From assembly GCA_031278395.1 (NCBI GenBank), contig JAITKM010000007.1:139805-203804 (forward strand): a stretch of 64,000 bases of DNA, in the 5' to 3' direction. The notes beneath the pieces are model-generated. The model did no database searches and was not told the origin of the DNA. It worked only from the letters and a program-made list of their open reading frames with translations. Position 1 is the stretch's first letter; each line of letters begins with the position of its first letter. This document shows, piece after piece, positions 3,354 through 39,108 of the stretch. Made by a program: the position numbers and the translations under genes. The stretch is from Deltaproteobacteria bacterium. GTDB lineage: Bacteria; Bdellovibrionota_C; UBA2361; SZUA-149; JAITKM01.

Positions 3354-5042
3354 ATGAAAAAATATATCGCTTCAATTATAAAAGAAAAGCTTAAACATCT
3401 CGTCGTGGATATCAGCGAAGAAGAAATTTTGTATAAGATAGAAATACCATCTAATAAAAAATTTGGTGATTTCGCATTCCCTTGTTTTATAATTTCTAAA
3501 AAAATATCTGTTAATCCAAATTCTGCGGCACTTCAATTAGAAGAATTATTAATTAACAATGAAGAATTTGAAAAAATAGAAGTAGTAGGAGGATACATAA
3601 ATTTTACTATTAATAAAGTTAATTTTGCTAAGAAAAAATTGGCAGATATTTTAAATCCAAACTTTAAAAAAGTTATAAATTCCCAAAAAAAAATATTAAT
3701 TGAATTTCCTTCTCCTAATACTAATAAACCTTTACATCTTGGACACTTAAGAAACATAACAATTGGAGAATCAATTGCCAGAATATTAGAAAGCGTTGGT
3801 AATGAAGTTGTTAGAGTTAATTTATATAACGACCGTGGGATTCACATTTGTAAATCCATGTTAGCTTATCAAAAATTTGGCGAGGACAAAGAACCAGATA
3901 AAAAATCAGATCACTTTGTCGGCGATTATTATGTCCTCTTTGGCAAATTAGCTAAGGAAGACGATAGCTATAACCAGAAAGCGCAAGAAATGCTTGTGCA
4001 ATGGGAAAATGGTAATCCGGAAATAATTTCACTATGGGAAAAAATGAATCACTGGGCATTTAAAGGTTTTGAACAAACCTTCGCAATGCTTGGTATTAAA
4101 TACGACAAATATTATTATGAAAGCAAAATATATAAAGATGGCAAAAATATTGTATTAGACGGTTTAAAGTCTGGCATCTTTTCAAAAAGAAACGATGGCG
4201 CTGTAATAATAGATTTAACCAACGAAGGGCTTGATAAAAAAGTCTTGCTAAGACCAGACGGCACAACAGTTTATATGACTCAAGATTTATATTTGGCAAA
4301 ATTAAAGGACGAAGATTTTAACGCTGATAATTCAATATACATTGTCGGCAATGAACAAGATTATCATTTTAACGCGCTGTTTATTATCTTAAAAAAAATA
4401 GGATTCCAAAAACAGTTAATGCATTTATCATATGGAATGGTAGAGCTGCCAGAAGGACGGATGAAGTCTCGTGAGGGAACAGTCGTCGATGCTGATGATT
4501 TTATAGAAATGGTTAAGCAATTAGCCAAAGCTGAAATAGTTAAGCGCTATAACAACATTTCCGAAGATGAGCTAGAAAACAAAAGTTTAACAATAACCCT
4601 AGCGGCAATTAAATACAGTTTATTAAAGACAGGTATATTTAAAAACATGATTTTTAACCCAAAAGAAGCGCTTAGTTTTGACGGTGATACCGGCTCTTAC
4701 CTTCTTTATTCTTATGCGCGTGCTTTTTCCATATTAGGCAAAATTAACGCTGAGTTAGAAAAAGACGGAGAGGTTAAAGAAATAAATGAGTTTGAATATG
4801 AATTAATAAAACAACTTAGTAATTATCAAGATGTATTAAAAAAATCAGCCGACGAATTAAACCCTTCTATTATTGCCCATTATGCATATGACTTAGCCAG
4901 CGCATTTAATGAGTTTTATCATACTTGCCCTGTCCTTAAGACAGAACAAGCGTTTGTTAGAATTTCGCTTGTAAAAGCATATGTGAATATTTTCAAACAT
5001 ATCCTAAGTTTATTAGGGATAGACGTGTTAGAAAAAATGTAG
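3354..5042 (+). CDS. argS: Arginine--tRNA ligase
   Basis: 562 aa class I aaRS with the HIGH-like motif PLHLGHLRN, a KMSKS-like MKSREG, and a DALR anticodon-binding C-terminus. Confidence 0.9.
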   Translation: MKKYIASIIKEKLKHLVVDISEEEILYKIEIPSNKKFGDFAFPCFIISKKISVNPNSAALQLEELLINNEEFEKIEVVGGYINFTINKVNFAKKKLADILNPNFKKVINSQKKILIEFPSPNTNKPLHLGHLRNITIGESIARILESVGNEVVRVNLYNDRGIHICKSMLAYQKFGEDKEPDKKSDHFVGDYYVLFGKLAKEDDSYNQKAQEMLVQWENGNPEIISLWEKMNHWAFKGFEQTFAMLGIKYDKYYYESKIYKDGKNIVLDGLKSGIFSKRNDGAVIIDLTNEGLDKKVLLRPDGTTVYMTQDLYLAKLKDEDFNADNSIYIVGNEQDYHFNALFIILKKIGFQKQLMHLSYGMVELPEGRMKSREGTVVDADDFIEMVKQLAKAEIVKRYNNISEDELENKSLTITLAAIKYSLLKTGIFKNMIFNPKEALSFDGDTGSYLLYSYARAFSILGKINAELEKDGEVKEINEFEYELIKQLSNYQDVLKKSADELNPSIIAHYAYDLASAFNEFYHTCPVLKTEQAFVRISLVKAYVNIFKHILSLLGIDVLEKM

Positions 5043-28213: not shown

Positions 28214-28229
28214 GTAAGTGTTGAGCGCT

Positions 28230-28286
28230 AACAATCTACTGCCGGCATTTTTGTTTAAAATGCCGGCAGTAGATTGTTAGGATTTT
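28230..28286 (+). terminator. Strong rho-independent terminator after rubrerythrin
   Basis: Perfect 22-bp stem (aacaatctactgccggcatttt / aaaatgccggcagtagattgtt) with a 5-nt loop, followed by aggatttt. Confidence 0.8.
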
Positions 28287-28350
28287 AGCTCTTGTTTTTC
28301 CTTTTCTCTTGAACAATCTCTAAATTTCTGCTTAAAGTCTGCCCGTTTCT

Positions 28351-28424
28351 GGCGATGTAGCTCAGGTGGCTAGAGCGCGGAACTCATAATTCCGAAGTCA
28401 GTGGTTCGAGTCCACTCATCGCCA
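28351..28424 (+). tRNA. tRNA with a CAU anticodon (elongator tRNA-Met, or tRNA-Ile2 if lysidinylated)
   Basis: 74-nt cloverleaf: acceptor ggcgatg/catcgcc, anticodon stem cggaa/ttccg, loop ctCATaa, T-loop ttcgagt. G1-C72 is paired, so this is not an initiator; CCA is not encoded. Confidence 0.85.
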
Positions 28425-28456
28425 TTTTTAAGATTACATATCAATTATATTATTCC

Positions 28457-29710
28457 ATGGATAAAAAAACTATCGCCGTATTTTTTGGCGGACAATCAAC
28501 TGAACATGATATTAGTATTCTGGCGGGGTTAGCGGTTATGCAGGCTATTGACAGGACTAAATTCAATGTTGAGCCTATATATATAGATTTCGATGGTAAC
28601 TGGTATAATGGCGAAGCTTTAAAGTTTCCAAATACTTTTCATCTTTCTAAAGCTATTAAAAAAACTTTAAACCGGGTGGAGTTTCCGATTGGGCGCAATT
28701 TTGAAAATGATCGTCCGCATTGCGATGTGATTTCGCGAGCAACTTTTTTTGGGGATAAAAAGATTTATTTTGACGTGGCGTTTTTAGCTTTTTTGGGTGC
28801 CGTAGGTGAGGATGGGGTTATCCAAGGCGTGTTTAGTACTGCTCGTGTGCCGTTTGTTAATTCAGATGTTCAAGCCGCGTCGATATATATGAATAAAGTT
28901 TTAACTAAAATGATTTTGCGTAGTGCTGGGGTGCCGGTTTTGCCAGAAATTACTTTGCGTCGTCCGGAGGTAGGCATGTTAGATATTAGTGAAATAATTA
29001 AAGGTCATAATTTCACGTATCCAGCTTGTGTTAAACCTGTGAACTTAGGCAGTAGTGTTGGAGTACGTAAGGTTGAGAATGAGGAAGAATTAAAAACGGC
29101 ATTGGTTGATGTGTTTAGGTTGGATTTTGAAGCTATGGTTGAGCCGTTTGTAGAAAATTTAGTTGAATATAATGTAGCGGTTTGTAAAGCTTTTGATGGT
29201 GAAATAGTTTGTTCGGCAATTGAAAAGCCAACTCGTGAAGACGCTCTTTTAAGTTTTGAAGACAAATATTGTCGTGGGGCAAGTAAGGGTAAGTTAGGCG
29301 AGAAATTTGGATCTAAATTTGGGAGCAAACTAGGGACTATTATTTCTGGTGAGAATAGAATGAATCAAGGTATGGCGGCAATGGGACGCGAGATGAACCC
29401 GGCTGAATTAACTGCGGCTCAAAAAGAGTTAATTTTGAATAGTGCTAAAATAGCTATGCAAGTTATTGGTGGAGCTGGAACGCCCAGAGTTGATTTTGTT
29501 TGTAACTCTGTAACTGGTGAAATATGGCTTAATGAGATTAATACAATTCCGGGCATGTTGGCTTATTATTTATGGGAAGCTAGCGAACCAAGAGTTCCGT
29601 TTACCAAGTTGATTGACGCATTAATTGAGGAAGCTTATCGCTCGGCAGATAAACTACGTCGTAACGTTGATTTAAAATCTGCTAAAGCCGCTTTGTTCCC
29701 TGATAGGTAA
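28457..29710 (+). CDS. ddl: D-alanine--D-alanine ligase with a Gly/Lys-rich insertion
   Basis: Ddl N-terminus (IAVFFGGQSTEHDISI) and ATP-grasp C-terminus; 417 aa because of an insertion containing KFGSKFGSKLG repeats. Confidence 0.85.
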   Translation: MDKKTIAVFFGGQSTEHDISILAGLAVMQAIDRTKFNVEPIYIDFDGNWYNGEALKFPNTFHLSKAIKKTLNRVEFPIGRNFENDRPHCDVISRATFFGDKKIYFDVAFLAFLGAVGEDGVIQGVFSTARVPFVNSDVQAASIYMNKVLTKMILRSAGVPVLPEITLRRPEVGMLDISEIIKGHNFTYPACVKPVNLGSSVGVRKVENEEELKTALVDVFRLDFEAMVEPFVENLVEYNVAVCKAFDGEIVCSAIEKPTREDALLSFEDKYCRGASKGKLGEKFGSKFGSKLGTIISGENRMNQGMAAMGREMNPAELTAAQKELILNSAKIAMQVIGGAGTPRVDFVCNSVTGEIWLNEINTIPGMLAYYLWEASEPRVPFTKLIDALIEEAYRSADKLRRNVDLKSAKAALFPDR

Positions 29711-29862
29711 ACTAAATTTAATTAGCGAAATAACTAGAAGTAATCTAGTTAGCTTTTTGAATTTTTTGGTAATATTAAGTTGACTATTGATTGACCTTAT
29801 TGTAGGGAACAAACCCAAATTTATCGCAACTTACGTTACTAATAATTTTTATTAATTAATTG

Positions 29863-29901
29863 GGTCCCATAGCTCAGTTGGATAGAGCAATTGCCTTCTA
29901 A
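29863..29901 (+). pseudogene. tRNA 5'-half fragment (acceptor, D arm, anticodon loop TCT) duplicating tRNA-Arg(UCU); no T arm
   Basis: ggtcccaTAGCTCAGTTGGATAGAGCAattgcCTTCTAA is a near copy of the first 39 nt of the intact tRNA-Arg 170 bp downstream, and diverges immediately 3' of the anticodon loop. Confidence 0.5.
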
Positions 29902-30033
29902 TCGGAGGTAGACGCGCCGGATGAAGATATAATAAACACGATTAAGCTATATTTTTAGCGAGGTTGTGAAAAGTTTAAAGATGTAAGGAACTGGATAGAA
30001 AAAGATTGAAAACCGTTGAGATATAAGTAAAAT

Positions 30034-30068
30034 GCTACATATATGCTACACGGAATGCTACATATTAC
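30034..30068 (+). repeat. Three direct copies of ATGCTACA immediately upstream of tRNA-Arg
   Basis: atgctacatat atgctacacgga atgctacatattac. Confidence 0.4.
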
Positions 30069-30145
30069 GGTCCCGTAGCTCAGTTGGATAGAGCAACAGC
30101 CTTCTAAGCTGTGGGTCAGAGGTTCGAATCCTCTCGGGATCACCA
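30069..30145 (+). tRNA. tRNA-Arg (anticodon UCU), with CCA encoded
   Basis: Cloverleaf: acceptor ggtcccg/cgggatc, anticodon stem acagc/gctgt, loop ctTCTaa, T-loop ttcgaat, 3' a-cca. Confidence 0.9.
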
Positions 30146-30209
30146 GCTTTTTTTATTATTTACATCCCGTTTATCAACCGTTGACTTCACCCATATTCAT
30201 CTCCAGCTC

Positions 30210-30253
30210 AACAGATTATTAGTCTGTTGCTCTACCAACTGAGCTAATCGCCC
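30210..30253 (-). pseudogene. Second tRNA 5'-half fragment (minus strand); no T arm
   Basis: Minus strand reads gggcgattagctcagttggtagagca-acaga-ctaataa-tctgt, giving acceptor 5' strand, D arm and anticodon arm only. It is in inverted orientation relative to the intact tRNA-Arg. Confidence 0.4.
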
Positions 30254-30372
30254 ATAAAGATTTCCGAGTTTTTTTCTGAATCCATTTCAAAAACTTTTAT
30301 AAAAAGTTAAAAATTACTCGCAATATAAAAATTTATAAGCTAGTATGATAAGGAGTAAAAACGAGAGGAAGC

Positions 30373-31302
30373 ATGAACGCAAATCCGTCATATAAAGAAG
30401 AACTTTTAGTCTCTAGGCCCGTCTTAAAATGGGCGGGGGGTAAAGGTCAATTGCTGGAACAAATCACAGCTCGGTTGCCAAATAAACTTAAAGCTGGTGC
30501 TATTAAAAGATATATTGAACCATTTATTGGTGGTGGAGCTGTTTTTTTTGAAATAGCCAATACTTATTTTTTTAAAGAGGCCTTTTTATTTGATATCAAT
30601 CCGGAACTCGTTATTCTTTACAATGTTATCAAAAACGATGTCAAAAAATTGATTGATGAATTAGAGAATATTCAAGCGGCATATTATAGCTCCCAAGATA
30701 GAAACCTATACTACTATGACCGCCGGGATGAATATAACAAAAACAACAAATTTATTGATGCAAATAAGTATACTTCTGATTTTGTAAGGCGGGCGGCTTT
30801 AACCATTTTTTTAAATCGAACCTGTTTTAATGGACTTTTCAGAGTAAACAAAAAAGGGTTATTTAACGTTCCAGTGGGTCAGTATAAAAATCCAAAAATA
30901 TTAGATGCGGAAAACTTGTTGAATGTATCTGCCGTATTGCAAAATGCAATAATACACCAAGCTGATTTTGCTGTCGCACAAGAATACGCCAACAAAGATA
31001 CTTTTATTTATTATGATCCGCCATATCGGCCAGTTAGGGAAACGTCCAGTTTTAATTCGTATGCCGCCATTGATTTTGATGATGCGGAACAAGAGCGTTT
31101 ACATGATTTGTTTGTTGCGGTTGGGAATAAGAGTGCATTACAAATGCTTTCTAATTCTGACCCGACAAATTACATCTCCGATCCATTTTTTGATGATTTA
31201 TACAAAGGTTTTAAAATAAATCGGGTTATGGCAAAACGTCTTATCAATGCCAATGCTGATGGTCGTAACGAAATCCGCGAATTATTGATTACAAATTATT
31301 AA
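30373..31302 (+). CDS. Dam-like (alpha-class, D12) N6-adenine DNA methyltransferase; M1 of a DpnII/MboI-type R-M system
   Basis: PVLKWAGGKGQLL, motif I YIEPFIGGGAVFF, motif IV IYYDPPY. Confidence 0.85.
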   Translation: MNANPSYKEELLVSRPVLKWAGGKGQLLEQITARLPNKLKAGAIKRYIEPFIGGGAVFFEIANTYFFKEAFLFDINPELVILYNVIKNDVKKLIDELENIQAAYYSSQDRNLYYYDRRDEYNKNNKFIDANKYTSDFVRRAALTIFLNRTCFNGLFRVNKKGLFNVPVGQYKNPKILDAENLLNVSAVLQNAIIHQADFAVAQEYANKDTFIYYDPPYRPVRETSSFNSYAAIDFDDAEQERLHDLFVAVGNKSALQMLSNSDPTNYISDPFFDDLYKGFKINRVMAKRLINANADGRNEIRELLITNY

Positions 31303-31361
31303 AATTTTGTGTTGATTGTTATGTCTGGTTGAAGTATTATTTCTACAAACAGGAATAAAAA

Positions 31362-31703
31362 ATGAATAAATCTGAGTTATTAAAAGATATGACTGACAGC
31401 AAATTTACTATTATTGATGCTGTTGAGGTCGGTCACAAATATCGATTAGCGATATACAAAGGCACTAAAACCGAAAGCATATTTGATTTTGTTGTCAGAT
31501 ATCGTGAAAATTTTAATACTGGTTGGTCTCGTATCCGAACACCTAAGCATGTACACTGGATTGTGGATATTCTGATAAAACGTTCTCATGACCGTGAAGA
31601 AACCTTGCTTTTTGTAAGAGAGTTTGAAAAATTATGGAACTCCATAAAGCCAATAACAATTCAGGGGGAGCTGGATACCTTATTAAGCAGGTTATCGATT
31701 TAA
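31362..31703 (+). CDS. Hypothetical 113-aa protein inserted between the two methyltransferase genes
   Basis: ORF with an RBS (aggaataaaaaatg). It has no HTH-like controller-protein features and no recognisable domain. Confidence 0.4.
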   Translation: MNKSELLKDMTDSKFTIIDAVEVGHKYRLAIYKGTKTESIFDFVVRYRENFNTGWSRIRTPKHVHWIVDILIKRSHDREETLLFVREFEKLWNSIKPITIQGELDTLLSRLSI

Positions 31704-31869
31704 AGATTTCTCCCCACAGCATCAATGAAATCTGACCTCCATGATACAGAATTCTTGTTTAAAATGATGTATCTGATAATGGTTCAAGAAAAAACGAACG
31801 ACCCCACAGGAACTTTAACTAGTGGCATTATTTATAAGTTAAAACATCAAGAAGATTGGTTTGGTTTAT

Positions 31870-32653
31870 TATGAGCGTAAAACCATACAGACTTTATTGT
31901 GCTGACTGTCTGGAACAATTAAAAGAAATTCCAGAAAATACTTTTGATATGATATTCGCAGATCCGCCATATATGCTTTCAAACGGAGGCATAAGCTGTC
32001 AGAGTGGCAAAGTTGTTTCGGTTAACAAAGGTGGCTGGGATAAAAGCCAAGGCTTTGAAAAAGACTTTGAGTTTCACAAACAATGGCTTGAACTTTGCAA
32101 AAGAGTCTTAAAACCTCATGGAACGTTATGGGTTTCTGGAACCTATCACAGCATTTACTCTTGTGGCTTTGCGCTGCAATTGCTCGGATATCATATTTTG
32201 AATGATATTTCTTGGTTCAAACCGAATGCCAGCCCCAATATGTCCTGTCGGTATTTTACCGCCAGCCATGAAACTTTAATTTGGGTTAGAAAAGATAAAG
32301 ATAGCAAACATATCTTCAATTATGAAGCAATGAAGAATGGCAGTTTCCCAAAGGATTTTTTGAAAAAGGCGGATACTCAAATGCGCAGCGTATGGGCGAT
32401 TGGAACGCCAGCCATGTCCGAAAAATCTCATGGAAAACATCCCACACAAAAACCGATAGATTTATTGGAACGCATTATTTTAGCATCTACTAATCCCGGA
32501 GCTTTAATTTTAGATCCATTCATGGGGAGTGGCACGACCGGTGTCGCGGCCATAAAATTAGGCCGGAAATTTGTAGGCATTGAAAAAGAACAACTATTCA
32601 TTGAATTGGCAGAAAAAAGATTGTACGATGCAACTATAAGCGCTGGAGAATAA
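31870..32653 (+). CDS. Beta-class N6-adenine/N4-cytosine DNA methyltransferase (DpnA/M2-like)
   Basis: Motif IV DMIFADPPY lies near the N-terminus and motif I ILDPFMGSGTTGVAA near the C-terminus (beta permutation). The ORF track opens at a TTG (31856); the ATG at ~31870 (MSVKPY) is more likely. Confidence 0.8.
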
Positions 32654-32654
32654 T

Positions 32655-33566
32655 ATGAAGCAAAACCCATCTTTCCAAAAAATATTAAATTGCAAAACCA
32701 GTGATGACGTTTTTGAATGTTTGGTTTCTAACTTGAAGCAAACCATTAAATCTTGGGATTACTTTGTTAATTGGAGCAAGGTTATTAAAAATTACAGGGA
32801 TATTGAAACAAGGCTAAATATCCTCAATACGTTGATTGGCAAGTCTGATATCAAAAAAGAAGCTAAAGAGTTATTGAATAAATATCCAGAAATCATGCCT
32901 ATTGTTCCAGATCTTCTAGCTTATAGAGATAGACAGGTTAATATTCTTTCCGACTTTAAAACTTTTGGTTTTGAAAGCTATGATTTTTCAAAACCTATCA
33001 ATGTTGATAAAGCTGTAAAATTTTTGGATAAAAGCGGATTCCTTAAATTACTTTCGGATAGAAATATCAAATCCATACCGGATTATTTCATTGGTATAGG
33101 GGTTGGATTAGACAGTAATGGTCGCAAAAATCGTAGCGGAACAGCTATGGAGGACATTATCGAATTTTTTGTTAAAGATCTTTGTGATAGAAATGGGTTT
33201 GAATATATTACCCAAGCAACTGCGGATAAAATAAAATCAAAATGGGACAAGACTATTACTGTTAATAAATCCTCAAAGCGAATTGATTTTGCAATTAACA
33301 CTCCGGGAAAACTTTACCTAATTGAAACTAATTTTTATGACGGTGGTGGCTCTAAATTAAAATCGACAGCTGGAGAATATATTGATTCTTACAACCAATG
33401 GACAAACGATGGACATCAATTTATTTGGATTACAGATGGATCTGGCTGGAAATCCACAAGGGGACCGTTAAGAGATACTTTCGATGTGATTGATTACATT
33501 TTGAATATCGATATGGTTCAAAAAGGCATTTTGGAAAATCTAATTATAGAAAAGGATAAGGTGTGA
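32655..33566 (+). CDS. Type II restriction endonuclease, DpnII/MboI (GATC) family-like
   Basis: 303 aa; overlaps the stop of M2. Segments GIGVGLDSNGRKNRSGTAMEDI, YLIETNFYDGGGSKLKSTAGEY and WITDGSGW resemble the DpnII endonuclease family as I recall it; the M1-M2-R gene order matches DpnII/LlaDCHI. Confidence 0.55.
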   Translation: MKQNPSFQKILNCKTSDDVFECLVSNLKQTIKSWDYFVNWSKVIKNYRDIETRLNILNTLIGKSDIKKEAKELLNKYPEIMPIVPDLLAYRDRQVNILSDFKTFGFESYDFSKPINVDKAVKFLDKSGFLKLLSDRNIKSIPDYFIGIGVGLDSNGRKNRSGTAMEDIIEFFVKDLCDRNGFEYITQATADKIKSKWDKTITVNKSSKRIDFAINTPGKLYLIETNFYDGGGSKLKSTAGEYIDSYNQWTNDGHQFIWITDGSGWKSTRGPLRDTFDVIDYILNIDMVQKGILENLIIEKDKV

Positions 33567-34392
33567 GAAAAAATATTGATATCACAGAGCAAGAATATAA
33601 AACCACCATACAAAAATTCTATGAATATTTTGAAAATGGATATCTTTTTGAAAACTTCTTAAAATCGTTTTTAGACAAAATAGGACTTGATGAAATATCT
33701 GTTACTCAACGTTCTCGCGATGGAGGTTTTGATTTAAAAGCATCTCGCTTTGGTGTTGGAGGCTTTAGTGAAGCCGATGCAGTAAATTACTATGTACAAG
33801 CGAAGAAATGTTCTCCAGAACAACGTATATCTGTCAAAGCAATCAGAGAATTAAAGGGCCTTATTCCCTTCGGGCATAAGGGAATTTTTATTACAACTGC
33901 AAAATTTTCCGCTGATGCAGAAAAGGAATCGAATAACGATCCATCAAACCAGTTGTACTTATTGATGGAAAATCTCTTGTTAGCAGCTGTATAGATCATG
34001 AAATAGGTTTTACTTTTAAACCCATATTCAACAAAGCTGCTATGGATGAATTAAAGCAAATTCATTATCCCGAAACATCGGAAGCAGAAGCAAATGAGAA
34101 TGAAAATACACTCGTTGTGGAACGACAAATAACGCTAAACGACATGAGATCTAGAATATTTCCTATTCCCCGCCTAATAAAAGATAATATGCCAGAGGGT
34201 TTATCTAAAATGGATGTATATTTAGAGGATGGGTCAAAAATAACATTGTCTGTCGATAAAGCAGGCCGTTATTTAGCCGGCATAACTAAGCTCTATAAGA
34301 AAGAGGGCTTGATCTTAGAAGACGGAAGCTTTAATCCCAAAAAATCTATCTGGACGTTATCTTCTGGTGTATTAAAGATATCTTTTTCATAA
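33563..34392 (+). pseudogene. Mrr-like (Mrr_cat) restriction endonuclease gene interrupted by a frameshift
   Basis: ORF 33563..33994 carries the Mrr catalytic core (RDGGFDLKAS...YVQAKK...GIFITTAKFSADAE). The continuation (KPVVLIDGKSLVSSCIDHEIGF, the typical Mrr C-terminal block) lies in another frame running into ORF 34042..34392. The shift maps to an A-run near 33945. The start overlaps the REase stop (ATGA), suggesting translational coupling. Confidence 0.5.
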
Positions 34393-34620: not shown

Positions 34621-35526
34621 ATGCGGATAGCAGAGATTAAAATACGAAATTTTAGAAAACTTAAAGAAGTGGTGATAGATTTTCATTCTAAAAAAACCGT
34701 ATTTATTGGTGCAAACAATAGTGGAAAAACAAGCGCTATAACTGCTATGTGTTTATTTTTAGAAGATAACCAAAAATTCTCAACCTATGATTTTCCGTTA
34801 TCAAATCATCTAAAAGTCAATGAACTTTTTGAAAAAGAGGTCGAACCATCAAAACAAGAAGTGGATGGTGTTTTTCCCGCTCTTGATTTATGGTTTTATG
34901 TCGAAGACAAAGATATTCATCATGTAAGCCAGCTATTGCCTACATTAGATTGGACGGGTGGCGACTTAGGAGTTCGTTTGCGATATGAAATAAAAGATAT
35001 TGCTAAATTGTTTAGCGACTATAAAAGCGCTCGAGATAAAATCAAAGGTAAAAATGGCCTATTTCCAAAAGATATGATGGATTACCTTTCAAAAAATCTT
35101 TCCGACCATTTTGAAATTCGTCGTTATGTCCTCGACCCTGCCCAAAAGGCTAAAATCCAAACTCAAGAAACTTTGGGAGAAAAATTAGAAATTAACCCAC
35201 TAGATAACATTCTACGAATAAATACAATTAACGCGCAACGTGGTATGAGTGATGAAGTCGCAGACGCAAAACAATCAGAAAAACAAAAATTAACAGCGTT
35301 AATGACAAAGTATTACACTTCTCATCTTGATCCCAATACAGGAGAAATGACCGAAAAAGATATAAAGGCACTTGAAACATTAAACACGGCAACAGAAGAT
35401 TTTACTAAAAATATGAGAGCCAACTTCAAGCCAGCCTTGGAAGAAATTGCAAAAATTGGATACCCACCTTTTGGAGCACCGGATATTACTATCAACCTTA
35501 TTATATCTACCTTATCAAACAGATAA
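34621..35526 (+). CDS. AAA/ABC-type ATPase N-terminal fragment (OLD/AAA_15-like); probable remnant of a defence gene
   Basis: MRIAEIKIRNFRKL...VFIGANNSGKTSAI (Walker A); 301 aa with no signature motif, Walker B or nuclease domain before the stop. Confidence 0.45.
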   Translation: MRIAEIKIRNFRKLKEVVIDFHSKKTVFIGANNSGKTSAITAMCLFLEDNQKFSTYDFPLSNHLKVNELFEKEVEPSKQEVDGVFPALDLWFYVEDKDIHHVSQLLPTLDWTGGDLGVRLRYEIKDIAKLFSDYKSARDKIKGKNGLFPKDMMDYLSKNLSDHFEIRRYVLDPAQKAKIQTQETLGEKLEINPLDNILRINTINAQRGMSDEVADAKQSEKQKLTALMTKYYTSHLDPNTGEMTEKDIKALETLNTATEDFTKNMRANFKPALEEIAKIGYPPFGAPDITINLIISTLSNR

Positions 35527-35625: not shown

Positions 35626-35784
35626 TTATGAAATTTTGCTTTCTTTATAAACTACGTGTTTGCGAACAACTGGATCATATTTTTTAAGTTCTAATTTTTC
35701 TGTTTTGCCTTTTTTATTTTTGGCAGTTGTATAAAAATGTCCAGTTTTTGCAGAAGATACTAATTTGATTAAATCTCTTGGCAT
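35626..35784 (-). CDS. rpmG: 50S ribosomal protein L33
   Basis: The minus-strand ORF translates to [52 protein letters not shown] (52 aa), a close match to bacterial L33. It is below the ORF-track length cutoff. Confidence 0.8.
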
Positions 35785-35878
35785 AATAATTTACCTTTAG
35801 AATAAAATTAAATAAAAAATGAAAGCGCTTTGATAGCAACTTACTGATATTATTGCAAACCTGTTTGTAAAAATATTA

Positions 35879-36097
35879 CTAATTAGTATATTTCTTTAAT
35901 TCTTTGTCTAAATCATCAAAACTTTTTCCAGAGATAGTATCTAGTTCATCAACTATATTGTCTTCGGCGAAGAACCAATTATAATAAGAAATGGCAATGA
36001 CAATTATTATAAAAGCCACGACTAATATTATAGCTCTACTAGCTATCTGAGAATTAGAAGGATATTTAATGCCTAAATCATTTGTTTTGTTTTCCAT
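35879..36097 (-). CDS. Hypothetical small membrane protein (72 aa, one TM helix)
   Basis: ORF with a hydrophobic core AIILVVAFIIIVIAISYY. Confidence 0.3.
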   Translation of the reverse strand: MENKTNDLGIKYPSNSQIASRAIILVVAFIIIVIAISYYNWFFAEDNIVDELDTISGKSFDDLDKELKKYTN

Positions 36098-37269: not shown

Positions 37270-37947
37270 ATGGCAATTCCTAAAAATATTTGCTTTTTTG
37301 TAATTTTTTATTTTTTTCTAGCTCCCCCCCTATCAGCGGCAGAAAATAAAGGGGTTTATAAATATATTCGTGAGGACGGCGAGGTAATTTATACTACAAC
37401 GCCACAGAACAAAGGTGACCTTCCTGAACAATTACCTGAAATAAAAAAGGAGAATTTAACTTCCAAAGTTGAGAACCTGAAGCAAAATACTCCACGGACT
37501 TGTGAAGATCATGGAGGTATTAATTGCCAAGCTGGAGCTGGAGTTGAGAAAAACGTAATTTGTCATGATGGCTGGACTCAAGCAGAAATCCCTTATCGTT
37601 TAGCTTGTGTTAATGTTGTGTTAAAAATTATTAACACTAGTTTGGTTGGGCAAGATGGACAAATTATGGATTATGATAAAAAAAAGAATATCCTAGATGA
37701 AATTAAGCTAAAACGCGCTACAGCTGTGCAATTTACGGTTAGAAACAATAATACAGTTAAGGCTAAAGATGTCTTGCTCGCGCTGCAAATTTCACGGAAT
37801 GAAAAGATTACCGCGCTAGGTAGCAACTATATTGAGCCATATGCTGTCGAAGATTATATTTTTCCTATTGCTGAGTTTCTTAAACAACCTAAACTCAAAT
37901 ATTTTAACACTGGCTTAATTAAATTAGAGTGTTCAAATTGTATGTAG
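37270..37947 (+). CDS. Secreted protein with a DUF4124-like N-terminal domain
   Basis: Signal peptide, then VYKYIREDGEVIYTTTPQ, which resembles the DUF4124 motif. Confidence 0.4.
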   Translation: MAIPKNICFFVIFYFFLAPPLSAAENKGVYKYIREDGEVIYTTTPQNKGDLPEQLPEIKKENLTSKVENLKQNTPRTCEDHGGINCQAGAGVEKNVICHDGWTQAEIPYRLACVNVVLKIINTSLVGQDGQIMDYDKKKNILDEIKLKRATAVQFTVRNNNTVKAKDVLLALQISRNEKITALGSNYIEPYAVEDYIFPIAEFLKQPKLKYFNTGLIKLECSNCM

Positions 37948-38088
37948 GTACATAGATGAGATAAAAGAGATGTATGCGGCAAAGTAAAATGCCGAGAAAA
38001 TTCTCAGGTATACACGCCGCCGTCGCAGGAAGAACTCGAAAATTACACAGGGATAACCCTATTACTTCATTTCAGCAGTCCAGACATC

Positions 38089-38340
38089 CGCCAGATTCTC
38101 CGCCTGCTTTATAACAAGCTCTATTGCGGCGGGCTGTTTGTCCGGCGGATAGCCATATTTATTAAGTATCCTTTGGACGCTGACCATAATGCGGGCGCGG
38201 AGCTGTCTCTTTGATGGCAAAGTCAATGGTCGCGTTTTTTCTGACCTTGTCCGCTATCTTGCGGACGATTTCCCGAGGCTGCCCTTATTCCATAAAGTCG
38301 AGTGGTTGCCCGTTCAGCGTTGACTTTACCTCTCTCCACA
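38089..38340 (-). pseudogene. hsdR: hsdR (Type I restriction subunit) C-terminal remnant with frameshifts
   Basis: Minus-strand frames give ...LNKYGYPPDKQPAAIELVIKQAENLADVWTAEMK* and, after a shift, REIVRKIADKVRKNATIDFAIKETA, matching the HsdR C-terminal domain; the N-terminal ~90% is missing. Confidence 0.5.
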
Positions 38341-38375
38341 TTGGCATATATTTATCCATTAAAGCGACAAACTTT

Positions 38376-38831
38376 TTATTGTGCTTTTTTCTCAACAAGG
38401 TGAACTAATTCGTGGATAACGACGTATTCGAGGCTTTCCGGCGTTTTCTTGGCAAGCTGTGTGTTCAGCCTATTTTTCCTGTGTTTGTGTTGCTCGTTCC
38501 CCAACGGGTGGTCATGTATTTGGTTTGCCACGTTGAAGTGCGCGTTATCTATAATCCCTCGGAGGTTGTTCGCCTCGGCAAGGCGGGCGATGACTTTATC
38601 CATTTCTTCGCCGATGTTCTTATTGCCGATAAGCGCAAGCATATCATCAAAACTCCCGCCTTCGGGAACGTCGATGTCGCCGTATGCCACGCCTTTGAAC
38701 TTGTCCGACACATACTTCACGAACAAAAGCGTCAGTATGTAATCTTTGTATTGTGAACTGTCCATGCCGCCGCGCAAGCTGTCGCAGCTTACCCAAAGGC
38801 TTGAATAGAGTTCACTTTTCTTGACCGCCAT
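38376..38831 (-). pseudogene. hsdM: In-frame chimera of an HsdM N-terminal domain (~100 aa) and a DUF45/YgjP-like metallohydrolase C-terminus
   Basis: N-terminus MAVKKSELYSSLWVSCDSLRGGMDSSQYKDYILTLLFVKYVSDKF matches HsdM_N; C-terminus PESLEYVVIHELVHLVEKK matches the DUF45 HExxH region; the methyltransferase catalytic domain is absent. Confidence 0.55.
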
Positions 38832-39108
38832 TAGCTATCCCTCCGAGTTGTGCATCTATATAAGAATTAGTGCGCTGTTAGTTTTCTTCAGCGCTCTCGC
38901 CGGAAATTAAGTAACTGCCCAGTTCAGGCGTGTATATGTTAAATGCTCGGGGTGAGGGGGGCGTTTGTTGAACCATCCCCTCGGAAAACAGTCAGCATTA
39001 ATCTCGCGAGGCACGAATGTATAACCTCCTAACCGAATAAGTGATCGATTGGTCGAGTCGCAATAATGACACGCGGCGCTTGATACACTAAGAGTGTAAT
39101 TCTGTAAA

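Follow-up and report, generated by a model that had tools for sequence, protein, structure and literature searches.

Two orphan tRNA 5′ parts around a complete tRNA-Arg(UCU) gene beside truncated defense genes

A tRNA-Arg gene and its two incomplete neighbors

The window, the entire 64-kb stretch of DNA that we analyzed, comes from a poorly sampled, Bdellovibrionota-like lineage of the termite gut. ARAGORN and Rfam agree on two complete tRNA genes within it, a tRNA-Met (28350–28425) and a tRNA-Arg with the anticodon TCT. Around the latter lie two shorter tRNA-like pieces, fragment A upstream on the same strand and fragment E downstream on the opposite strand (Table 1). The central tRNA-Arg(UCU) alone of these three is a complete gene; both A and E fall short of one, and no tRNA product is predicted from either. 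Corroborating a first-pass annotation made from the letters alone, which had described an intact tRNA-Arg bracketed by two 5′ halves, ARAGORN calls one intact tRNA-Arg, leaves A and E uncalled, and reveals no complete tRNA that had been overlooked.

Table 1. Features of the locus, in window coordinates.
Feature	Position	Strand	Basis or remark
Fragment A, orphan tRNA-Arg(UCU) 5′ part	29863–29901	+	36/39 identical to 30069–30107
Unique spacer after the A breakpoint	29902–30005		opens with the locally GC-rich stretch GGAGGTAGACGCGCCGGATGAAG
Promoter-like site TTGAAA-16 nt-TAAAAT	30006–30033	+	10/12 consensus positions
Three ATGCTACA octamers	30032–30062	+	starts 30032, 30043, 30055
tRNA-Arg, anticodon TCT	30069–30145	+	ARAGORN; Rfam tRNA 71.9 bits; intact
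T7 run	30149–30155	+	just 3′ of tRNA-Arg
Fragment E, orphan non-Arg tRNA 5′ part	30211–30253	−	Rfam tRNA 27.2 bits
DpnII-type R-M module, apparently intact	30373–33994	+	Pfam, PADLOC
Dam-like methyltransferase	30373–31302	+	Pfam MethyltransfD12, E 7e-58
N4/N6 methyltransferase	31856–32653	+	Pfam N6_N4_Mtase, E 9e-61
DpnII endonuclease	32655–33566	+	Pfam DpnII, E 3e-94
Mrr-like nuclease	33563–33994	+	Pfam, PADLOC
GajA (Gabija), truncated, ATPase half only	34621–35526	+	PADLOC profile
rpmG, ribosomal protein L33	35626–35784	−	Pfam Ribosomal_L33 on identical Logan contig
Collapsed type I R-M operon	38062–38831	−	Pfam, PADLOC; GC 0.47–0.49
HsdM, first 105 aa fused to YgjP-like tail	38376–38831	−	Pfam, PADLOC
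HsdR, last ~42 aa	38062–38226	−	Pfam, PADLOC

Fragment A is 39 nt long and matches nucleotides 1–39 of the tRNA-Arg gene (BLAST E-value 2e-9) with three differences in the alignment, G7→A, C28→T, and A29→T. It comprises the acceptor 5′ strand, the D arm, the 5′ strand of the anticodon stem, and the anticodon loop CUUCUAA, and lacks the 3′ strand of that stem, the T arm, and the acceptor 3′ strand. The similarity begins exactly at tRNA position +1 and runs to the final anticodon-loop base; over the 25 nt that follow, identity is roughly 32%, a random level, bearing out the claim of a near-exact copy that diverges right after the loop. The distance to the intact gene, put at about 170 bp, measures 167 bp. 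Neither ARAGORN nor Rfam, serving as a cloverleaf test for complete tRNAs, calls fragment A, a consensus scan of 29600–30450 finds no promoter-like site upstream of it, and together with its flank it folds no better than shuffled sequences (z = −0.06). Paired with the 3′ half of the present tRNA-Arg, it gives an A7×C66 mismatch and U29×U41. Its ATTGC stem variant also occurs, with a GCAAT partner, in functional viral tRNA-Arg genes (4 of the 120 IMG/VR matches listed).

Fragment E, reported at first reading as an opposite-strand tRNA 5′ half without a T arm and found as such by Rfam, is 43 nt long and scores below the Rfam gathering score of 29. It holds the acceptor 5′ strand GGGCGAU, a D arm, and a complete anticodon arm with the loop CUAAUAA; the T arm and acceptor 3′ strand are missing, and a 25-nt unaligned insert takes the place of the T arm in the Rfam alignment. 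Its 34 specified bases (D arm plus anticodon stem) match exactly 50 real tRNAs in IMG/VR, whose anticodons are TTT (35), GTT (14), and CTT (1), never AAT; at the point where these tRNAs go on with GGGTC, E reads TGAGC. Among annotated phage matches, a tRNA-Asn is the best (85%, 5′ half only). With tRNA-Arg, E has only the generic D arm and stem in common (24 nt with a gap), and its fold with flank is no better than that of shuffles (z = −1.25). Judged by its bases, E is not a tRNA-Arg fragment; its frame is of the Lys/Asn type and its AAU anticodon is unnatural. Because it is inverted and of a different isotype, it cannot be an att partner of tRNA-Arg, a role that we considered and ruled out.

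In 3.8 Mb of fetched DNA that contains 905 intact tRNAs, a 5′-half profile recovered no other internal 5′ half without a T arm, so that two within 400 bp lie far above background. Partners that might complete A or E, sought with Rfam, folding, and T-arm searches, are absent: a T-arm motif search found no orphan T arm in the 64-kb window, and a 3′-half profile, which is insensitive, matched no orphan 3′ half there. Nor did Rfam match a group I or II intron in 29600–30500 at E ≤ 10; a hit to HPnc0260 at a relaxed threshold is an artefact of antisense tRNA. A split, permuted, or intron-containing tRNA was rejected on these results. They weigh equally on the idea that the pieces still function, whether as split-tRNA halves, as an intron-containing tRNA, or as expressed tRNA-half decoys linked to defense. 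The breakpoints do coincide with the anticodon arm, the target of anticodon nucleases, and defense genes are near, but besides the missing partners and intron this idea faces folds no better than shuffles, the lack of a promoter-like site before A, and the unnatural anticodon of E, and we give it next to no credence.

The spacer that follows fragment A resembles nothing else in the window and has no meaningful match in phage and plasmid collections (BLAST), and exact searches of IMG/VR for the A junction and the E junction returned 0 matches each. The promoter-like site beyond it sits between A and the tRNA-Arg gene, positioned to drive the latter, and is the sole plus-strand site of its kind in 29600–30450; it is a consensus match only, and the two promoter-like sites of the region are not above the shuffle mean of 2.5. 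The three octamers noted earlier at the tRNA 5′ end are indeed there, spaced by 11 and 12 nt, or about one helical turn. The first ATGCTACA shares bases with the end of the −10 hexamer; the last one stops 6 nt short of the tRNA. They form the sole triple 8-mer cluster in the window; of 200 simulations of all 64 kb under a first-order Markov model, 5 produced any such cluster. In IMG/VR the triple-octamer pattern has 54 matches, many on giant-virus contigs and none beside a tRNA. The octamers could have arisen as duplications by slippage, or could serve as protein-binding sites.

On the 3′ side of the gene, the GCUGU of the anticodon-stem 3′ strand can pair with a CAGC that follows the CCA, and this pairing with the T7 run makes a possible terminator that re-uses tRNA sequence; a simple terminator scan called none behind the tRNA-Arg. 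The only candidate for a target-site duplication around the tRNA, the 9-nt repeat AACCGTTGA, was dismissed, since it is of chance-expected length and there are no terminal inverted repeats.

Downstream genes, relatives, and assembly

The first-pass annotation had further described a block of R-M and defense genes and remnants of about 9 kb, ending in a foreign high-GC patch. As to gene content this stands. A Dam-class and an N4/N6 methyltransferase and a DpnII-family endonuclease lie in one operon, as in DpnII-type R-M systems, together with a 113-aa ORF of no assigned family. The GajA homolog matches positions 1–317 of the 736 in the PADLOC profile (E-value 1e-87) and has no TOPRIM part, and PADLOC finds no GajB, which leaves the locus short of a full Gabija system. 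GC content is high in the type I R-M remnant at 38.0–39.0 kb and native, like the flanks, in the rest of the block. The block also encloses rpmG and two signal-peptide ORFs. It is thus a patchwork of one DpnII-type system and truncated Gabija and type I R-M genes, not one island, and A and E do not bound it. Defense loci in this genome are eroding by deletion, and the block was probably shaped by the same decay.

In the original reading, A and E were att scars of repeated integration and excision of this block at the tRNA-Arg gene. The block does occupy the 3′ side of the tRNA, the classical side for an island, and contains foreign-looking remnants; moreover, in other termite-gut assemblies tRNA-Phe and tRNA-Val have related Dam/DpnII cassettes on their 3′ side. 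The polarity is wrong, however: the distal end of a downstream island is marked by a 3′ fragment, and no match of 12 nt or more to 30103–30145 exists anywhere in the window, nor any partial tRNA in 33–41 kb. Fragment E is non-cognate and inverted, and rpmG, a core gene, breaks up what should be contiguous foreign DNA. A recombinase is missing as well. None of the ORFs in 25–42 kb, searched with Pfam, PADLOC, PHROGs, and NCBIfam, is an integrase or a remnant of one, and a crude, low-sensitivity screen of the whole 64 kb (tblastn with an approximate XerD query plus a six-frame motif regex) found none either, consistent with the earlier statement that no integrase survives in the window. For the fragments, the link to the downstream block is largely refuted, and we consider it quite improbable that this block's traffic left them.

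Relatives were sought by Ddl-anchored scans of genome and metagenome contigs and by a search of 5.8 billion proteins, and only two proved useful. In one (Ddl 67%), ddl is followed by rplK and rplA with no tRNA. The other, L149 (Ddl 77% identical), alone has a tRNA-Arg after ddl; this gene is intact, with no fragments, no R-M genes, and different neighbors. From these two, no empty site can be defined. The L149 and window tRNA-Arg genes are identical at positions 8–49 and have the G2·U71 wobble in common, and their 3:70 and 7:66 pairs co-vary.

Exact copies of the Ddl and Dam proteins are confined to this MAG contig and two Logan contigs of SRR14710901. Both Logan contigs are identical to the window and break within the tRNA-Arg gene: the first stops at 30102, the second begins at 30088. 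The simplest reason is that several genomes have tRNA k-mers in common. The L149 tRNA has 42 identical nt, so the assembly graph branches here, and the two breaks could be taken as a sign that the metagenome assembler fused different genomes through such k-mers. A fusion of this kind would yield a full-length hybrid tRNA rather than truncated halves. Moreover, A and E each lie well within one Logan contig identical to the window, and the acceptor stem is perfectly paired across the break, its 5′ strand lying to the left and its 3′ strand to the right, including the co-varying 3:70 and 7:66 pairs. A chimera is accordingly a very remote prospect.

The cassettes of the nearest Dam homologs (71–76%) contain no E-like piece; E as a passenger of the R-M cassette was discarded for this reason. 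The 5′ segment of the tRNA-Arg gene occurs on at least 120 IMG/VR contigs. Those listed carry the whole tRNA, one being cut by the contig end, and no 5′-only attP copy is among the matches listed.

Origin of the fragments

The locus is an ordinary kind of feature, the wreckage of past DNA rearrangement, and the question is which rearrangement. The anticodon loop is a favored crossover site of tRNA-targeting tyrosine integrases, and 2083 of the 3919 islands catalogued by Islander are anticodon-centered (PMC4383910). In the much rarer 5′-fragment class (159 of 3919, or about 4%), the fragment lies upstream of the intact gene and the island between the two (PMC4383910). For Klebsiella, elements have been described that insert on the upstream side of a tRNA-Arg gene (bioRxiv 10.1101/2020.11.02.365908). 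Fragment A and the tRNA-Arg gene have the geometry of these rare 5′-fragment integrase scars: the fragment is cognate, lies upstream in the same orientation, and reaches the 5′ end of the gene. This geometry places the inserted DNA between them, that is, in the 167 bp and not in the downstream R-M block. The anticodon-loop breakpoint proposed in the first-pass annotation therefore holds for A, at a favored crossover site; repeated events at one tRNA do not follow, as E is non-cognate.

We tentatively favor, while holding it short of an even chance, a nearly erased integration scar of the upstream type next to a tRNA pseudogene unrelated to it, in a region that deletions are wearing away. Fragment A would be the displaced 5′ part of the tRNA-Arg(UCU) gene, left by an upstream-inserting element with a tyrosine integrase. 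Such an element would cross over in the anticodon loop, bringing its own promoter and a copy of the tRNA 5′ part; the gene would be rebuilt at the far end of the element and the old 5′ part stranded upstream. Nearly the whole element, integrase and cargo included, would have been deleted later, leaving some 167 bp with the promoter-like site and three phased octamers. The spacer would be residual element DNA, and the octamers could be former arm-type sites of the recombinase, a term for short direct repeats within the att arms to which an element's integrase binds. Fragment E would be a separate casualty: a tRNA gene of Lys/Asn/Ile-like type, belonging to the host or carried by an element, that a deletion truncated just beyond the anticodon stem and that later mutated in its anticodon.

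Several observations argue for this scar. The position of A upstream of its cognate gene in the same orientation is exactly the 5′-fragment configuration that Islander accepts. The edges are sharp, at +1 and at the last loop base, and a random deletion would end at this base only by luck. An upstream-type element must bring a promoter, and the sole good plus-strand site lies between A and the gene. The unique phased 8-mer triple adjoins what would be the rebuilt gene, and the three mismatches all lie 5′ of the identical loop, as expected with heterology outside the crossover segment. Fragment E is tRNA-derived but dead, its AAU anticodon occurring in 0 of 50 same-frame tRNAs, and orphan 5′ halves are rare in the 3.8 Mb of comparison DNA. 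Local decay is evident in GajA cut at about 317 of 736 positions and in the 105 aa of HsdM and ~42 aa of HsdR that persist.

Other observations argue against it. The 167-bp interval lies far below any known element size, Islander's range of 2–200 kb included, and a later deletion that spared both att ends is therefore needed; it holds no ORF and thus no integrase, and neither an integrase nor a remnant came to light in the ORF searches and crude screen described above. Integration of the 5′ type is rare, the A side is devoid of ATGCTACA-like sites, the IMG/VR matches listed include no 5′-only attP, and no relative is near enough to show an empty site. If A is the host's original 5′ part, its A7×C66 and U29×U41 oppositions oblige us to assume mutations after the event; given its occurrence in functional viral tRNA-Arg genes, the ATTGC variant means that A could instead be foreign, not a copy of the host gene. 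Finally, E requires a separate explanation.

A competing account, which we rate as possible though on balance doubtful, needs no lost integrase. Several complete tRNAs, a second tRNA-Arg(UCU) and one of Lys/Asn/Ile type, would once have stood here as host duplicates or as prophage- or island-borne cargo, and their 3′ parts would have been lost by ordinary deletion with no site-specific recombination at either breakpoint. At least three protein genes within 9 kb are demonstrably truncated by deletion; viral contigs commonly carry tRNA-Arg(UCU), tRNA-Lys, and tRNA-Asn genes of exactly these frames, and the stem variant of A is found in functional viral tRNAs; and two of the three differences in A are GC→AT, as for a neutral relic in a genome of 35% GC. 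Set against this, both relics are 5′ parts, and each break falls no more than 6 nt from the 3′ side of the anticodon arm, a coincidence to which we give a chance of about 1–2% under independent random deletion (a rough estimate, not computed). The onset of similarity exactly at +1 excludes a recent segmental duplication, and A has no promoter-like site. Tandem tRNA genes are also usually close and co-transcribed, whereas a separate promoter and no less than 167 bp stand between A and the gene.

A single event could account for both fragments if a convergent pair, tRNA-Arg on the plus strand and another tRNA on the minus strand, had lost their 3′ halves together. A break, deletion, or exchange would have installed the 303-bp segment 29902–30204, a tRNA-Arg cassette complete in itself, with its promoter, repeats, and T-run, and the restored tRNA-Arg(UCU) would have been needed for survival. 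The two 5′ parts do face each other across this segment, which is a complete transcription unit without similarity to anything else. L149 has no convergent tRNA after its tRNA-Arg, however, and neither a donor nor a mechanism was identified; terminal repeats or a target duplication are not evident, and AACCGTTGA at 9 nt is of chance length. We regard such a replacement as unlikely. More specifically still, the ~300-bp self-expressing tRNA-Arg cassette could be a mobile payload that recombined at the anticodon arms of two convergent tRNAs. This would be a natural recombinase-mediated cassette exchange that left the host 5′ halves pointing toward the insert, with the octamers as putative binding sites of the recombinase; we think it decidedly improbable. 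Were either this exchange or the upstream-integrase scar true, mobile DNA would be supplying an essential tRNA with both its promoter and its front half.

The upstream-type scar that we prefer can be compared with known systems. Like Islander 5′-fragment islands and the Klebsiella arg2 elements, the locus has a cognate 5′ fragment upstream in the same orientation, similarity that ends in the anticodon loop, and a promoter-like site on the element side. It differs from Islander's islands in being 167 bp only, with no integrase and no cargo, and from arg2, where the D-loop is reported as the site, in its anticodon-loop break. Among integrase-less elements, the CIMEs (cis-mobilizable elements) of streptococcal ICEs are kilobase-sized, and the recognizable att repeats at their flanks are common to a resident ICE. 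The locus resembles them in having two att-like ends without a recombinase gene; it differs in that no partner element is visible here. TRNA-adjacent defense islands are similar in their downstream content, here DpnII-type R-M, an Mrr-like nuclease, and Gabija and type I R-M remnants. They differ in that the present block has no delimiting repeats, consists mostly of truncated systems, and is interrupted by rpmG and native-looking secreted-protein ORFs. TRNA fragments beside defense genes alone do not fix the borders of an island; polarity and cognacy come first.

The locus is a local curiosity, a clean case of the rarer 5′-fragment tRNA relic. Partial tRNAs have been interpreted as attR-type remnants and pseudo-tRNAs, which mostly bracket integrated elements of 9–23 kb (van der Gulik et al., 2023, RNA Biol; PMC9897764). 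The present pieces differ in that A brackets almost nothing and E has no cognate at all. They are alike in being non-canonical pieces near canonical genes with near-threshold scores, and at 27.2 bits E belongs to the partial tRNAs that are open to mis-annotation.

A tRNA-Arg gene between two tRNA 5' halves

The window belongs to a low-GC Gram-negative metagenome-assembled genome whose closest counterpart in the species collection, judged by Ddl (locus tag LBE20_01445), is a Bdellovibrionota MAG at 67% identity. One of the two intact tRNA genes in the 64 kb lies in a 662-bp gap between ddl and a Dam-class methyltransferase gene. ARAGORN, Rfam and BLAST uphold the first-pass annotation in placing this single intact tRNA-Arg between two tRNA 5'-half fragments, here called A (upstream) and E (downstream).

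Features of the tRNA-Arg locus and of the genes that follow it
Feature	Position	Strand	Remarks
Hairpin	28229-28278		long, perfect (CTACTGCCGGCATTTT...AAAATGCCGGCAGTAG)
tRNA-Met	28350-28425		intact; ARAGORN and Rfam
ddl	28457-29710		
Fragment A	29863-29901	+	
Promoter-like site	30006-30033	+	TTGAAA-16-TAAAAT; 10/12 positions matched; only good plus-strand site in 29600-30450
Three ATGCTACA octamers	starts 30032, 30043, 30055		
tRNA-Arg(TCT)	30069-30145	+	intact; ARAGORN and Rfam, 71.9 bits
Fragment E	30253->30211	-	
Dam-class methyltransferase gene	30373-31302		
DpnII-type module	from 30373	+	apparently intact; Dam-like methyltransferase, 113-aa ORF, N4/N6 methyltransferase, DpnII endonuclease, Mrr-like nuclease
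113-aa ORF	31362-31703	+	no family match; between both methyltransferase genes of the DpnII-type cassette
Gabija GajA, N-terminal 40%	34621-35526	+	ATPase part; covers positions 1-317 of the 736 in the PADLOC profile, E 1e-87
rpmG (ribosomal protein L33) and 72-aa membrane ORF	35626-36097	-	opposite strand to R-M genes, mid-block
Two adjacent ORFs, about 230 aa	36482-37180, 37270-37947	+	hydrophobic signal-peptide-like N termini; not similar mutually; no match in Pfam, PADLOC, PHROGs or NCBIfam
GC-rich patch	37990-39090		GC 0.47-0.49 vs about 0.35; collapsed type I R-M operon inside
HsdR, last ~42 aa	38062-38226	-	
HsdM, first 105 aa	38376-38831	-	in-frame fusion to YgjP-like metallopeptidase tail

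Fragment A is the 5' part of a tRNA-Arg(UCU). As first reported, it is a near-exact copy of the first 39 nt of tRNA-Arg (36/39 identical, E 2e-9, BLAST); the alignment runs from tRNA position +1 to the last anticodon-loop base, past which A reads TCGGAGGTAGACG and the intact gene GCTGTGGGTCAGA. A departs from the gene at three bases (G7->A, C28->T, A29->T), and joined to the present 3' half it would mismatch at A7xC66 and U29xU41. Its ATTGC stem strand is not just damage, because ATTGC occurs in 4 viral tRNA-Arg(UCU) genes among the 120 matches listed, partnered by a compensating GCAAT in three and by GCAAC in one. A is thus one of two things: a copy of the resident gene with slight decay, two of its three changes being GC->AT, or the leading part of some foreign tRNA-Arg.

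Fragment E, on the opposite strand 3' of tRNA-Arg, likewise bears out its first description as a tRNA 5' half: it retains the acceptor 5' strand, D arm and whole anticodon arm, lacks the T arm, and scores 27.2 bits on the Rfam tRNA model (gathering score 29). Across the 34 specified bases of its D arm and anticodon stem, E is identical to 50 tRNAs on IMG/VR contigs, whose anticodons are UUU (35), GUU (14), CUU (1) and AAU (0); past the stem these same-frame tRNAs read GGGTC, and E reads TGAGC. The top annotated phage match is a tRNA-Asn (85%, 5' half only). Together, the frame, the anticodon counts and the phage match identify E as a Lys/Asn-type (possibly Ile-type) tRNA gene severed at position 43/44, and thus a pseudogene. 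To our knowledge, its anticodon, AAU, is used by no bacterial tRNA. An origin of E from tRNA-Arg was ruled out by the UUU/GUU/CUU frame of its D arm and anticodon stem and by the tRNA-Asn match.

A profile built on about 500 distinct tRNA 5' halves found both A and E in a scan of 3.8 Mb of fetched DNA containing 905 intact tRNAs. Besides contig-end hits and identical Logan copies of the locus, it left two other orphans, both with T loops; with no further T-loop-less orphan in the 3.8 Mb, two true tRNA 5' halves within 400 bp are far from background. Nor are A and E complete genes in disguise, that is, overlooked tRNAs with downstream partners: with their flanks they fold no better than shuffled sequence (z = -0.06 and -1.25, respectively), no orphan T arm lies anywhere in the window, no intron family matches the region at E <= 10, and a relaxed Rfam scan of the whole window added nothing. 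A function for the tRNA halves seems to us very improbable.

Downstream of the anticodon of tRNA-Arg (30108-30155, +), the stem 3' strand GCUGU can pair with CAGC just past the CCA, with a U7 run next; this could be an intrinsic terminator reusing the tRNA's own 3' half, although it went uncalled in a simple scan for terminators. The perfect hairpin just upstream of tRNA-Met follows a rubrerythrin gene and is probably its terminator.

Relation to the downstream defence genes

The first-pass annotation had taken A and E for attachment scars of the restriction-modification (R-M) and defence block downstream, a reading that we now consider highly unlikely. Between A and tRNA-Arg lie 167 bp (29902-30068), and the R-M block is outside this bracket. 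For an island 3' of a tRNA gene, the expected terminus is a direct repeat of the tRNA 3' part; BLAST at word size 7, with the full intergenic region as query, gave no such copy of >= 12 nt in the window, and Rfam found no partial tRNA in 33-41 kb. Moreover, E is inverted and non-cognate to tRNA-Arg, an arrangement that Islander, a survey of genomic islands in tRNA genes, treats as noise (PMC4383910). The statement that no integrase survives agrees with our searches, which detected no integrase domain among the ORFs of the 25-42 kb stretch and none in a crude, low-sensitivity whole-window screen with an approximate query; the degraded tyrosine-recombinase gene suggested for the flanks did not emerge from these screens.

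The R-M and defence genes, remnants and high-GC patch are present as described, but the "9 kb island" is a patchwork rather than one island, with rpmG and native-type ORFs inside. GajA ends 100 bp from the rpmG stop, and its locus lacks the TOPRIM domain and GajB. These truncated genes record repeated deletional truncation, a relevant background for the truncated tRNAs. We know of no counterpart of the 113-aa ORF in the classical dpnM-dpnA-dpnB arrangement.

Relatives and assembly

Only one relative found through Ddl (L149, 77% identical) has tRNA-Arg after ddl. There, ddl is followed by a coiled-coil-like ORF of 125 aa in opposite orientation, then by an intact tRNA-Arg(UCU) and last by an unrelated membrane ORF, with neither tRNA fragments nor R-M genes. 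The two tRNA-Arg genes are identical at positions 8-49 and have the G2.U71 wobble in common; their differences, at 3:70, at 7:66 and in the T stem, are paired changes. This comparison shows the order ddl, tRNA-Arg to be ancestral and the sequence beyond the tRNA to be variable.

In other assemblies, Dam/DpnII cassettes 71-76% identical to the window's lie directly 3' of tRNA-Phe and tRNA-Val (L150 7491-7566, L152 9056-9130; ENA ERZ272572xx-273xx, JGI 3300010167), so that placement beside tRNAs is common for such cassettes. None of these tRNA-adjacent cassettes carries an E-like piece. The cassettes of L152-L154 have a DUF2924 gene and a truncated HsdR as neighbours.

The window sequence recurs unchanged in two Logan contigs from SRR14710901, both of which break inside tRNA-Arg, just 5' of the anticodon (L081 ends at 30102, L155 starts at 30088). 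An assembly chimera is very unlikely: A and E are each contained in a single contig, well away from its ends, and the acceptor strands flanking the break pair perfectly, via lineage-specific pairs. The assembly graph likely branched here because co-resident relatives have 42 identical nt of tRNA-Arg in common.

Origin of the two fragments

Under the Islander rule, a terminal piece is displaced to one flank on integration, and a downstream 5' fragment or an upstream 3' fragment disqualifies a candidate; the piece left behind is a 3' fragment for 3760 islands and a 5' fragment for 159 (PMC4383910). Integration of islands on the upstream side of a tRNA-Arg gene is described in a Klebsiella preprint (10.1101/2020.11.02.365908). 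A and the intact tRNA-Arg conform to the rule. A promoter-like site stands just upstream of the octamers and tRNA-Arg, and A has none of its own in the 29600-30450 scan. An element replacing the front of a tRNA gene must supply a promoter, and the placement therefore fits upstream integration. The spacer between A and tRNA-Arg has no match in phage, plasmid or viral collections.

The reading toward which we lean, tentatively, is a nearly erased upstream-type integration scar (A) beside a separate, deletion-truncated pseudogene (E). An element would have replaced the front of tRNA-Arg from the upstream side, bringing the promoter, and almost all of it would later have been lost; E would be a separate tRNA gene cut by deletion. 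Such a site-specific event explains the sharp edges of A, its orientation and the promoter placement. Against it, the event calls for a rare integrase class and for the loss of almost the whole element, and it leaves E unaccounted for. Simple decay of surplus tRNA genes is somewhat less likely than this reading. By our own rough estimate, not a computed value, the chance that two independent random deletions would each spare a 5' part and end within a few bases of the anticodon-arm 3' side is about 1-2%. That convergent tRNA genes underwent one replacement event, as the opposed strands of A and E might suggest, is improbable. Mobile elements are well known to leave tRNA gene fragments behind (PMC9897764; PMC4383910), and on the integration history that we infer, this locus would add one more case, with the rarer 5' polarity and from an unsampled lineage.

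The triple octamer repeat reported at the 5' side of tRNA-Arg is present. The first copy shares the last bases of the -10 hexamer and the other two would fall in a ~28-nt leader. It is the only non-overlapping triple 8-mer cluster of the window, and such a cluster appeared in 5/200 Markov simulations of the whole 64 kb. Elsewhere in IMG/VR the triple is found in unrelated tandem repeat DNA, with many matches on giant-virus contigs. Integrase arm-type sites look like phased direct repeats beside the core site, and the octamers resemble them in appearance; any role would be putative.

On one IMG/VR contig (L295), a tRNA-Arg(UCU)-like sequence at 4658-4711, not called by ARAGORN, lies 25 nt from an intact tRNA. 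Its acceptor strands are unpaired (GGCCCTT vs ACGGTGT); possibly it is a pseudo or chimeric tRNA belonging to a viral tRNA cluster.
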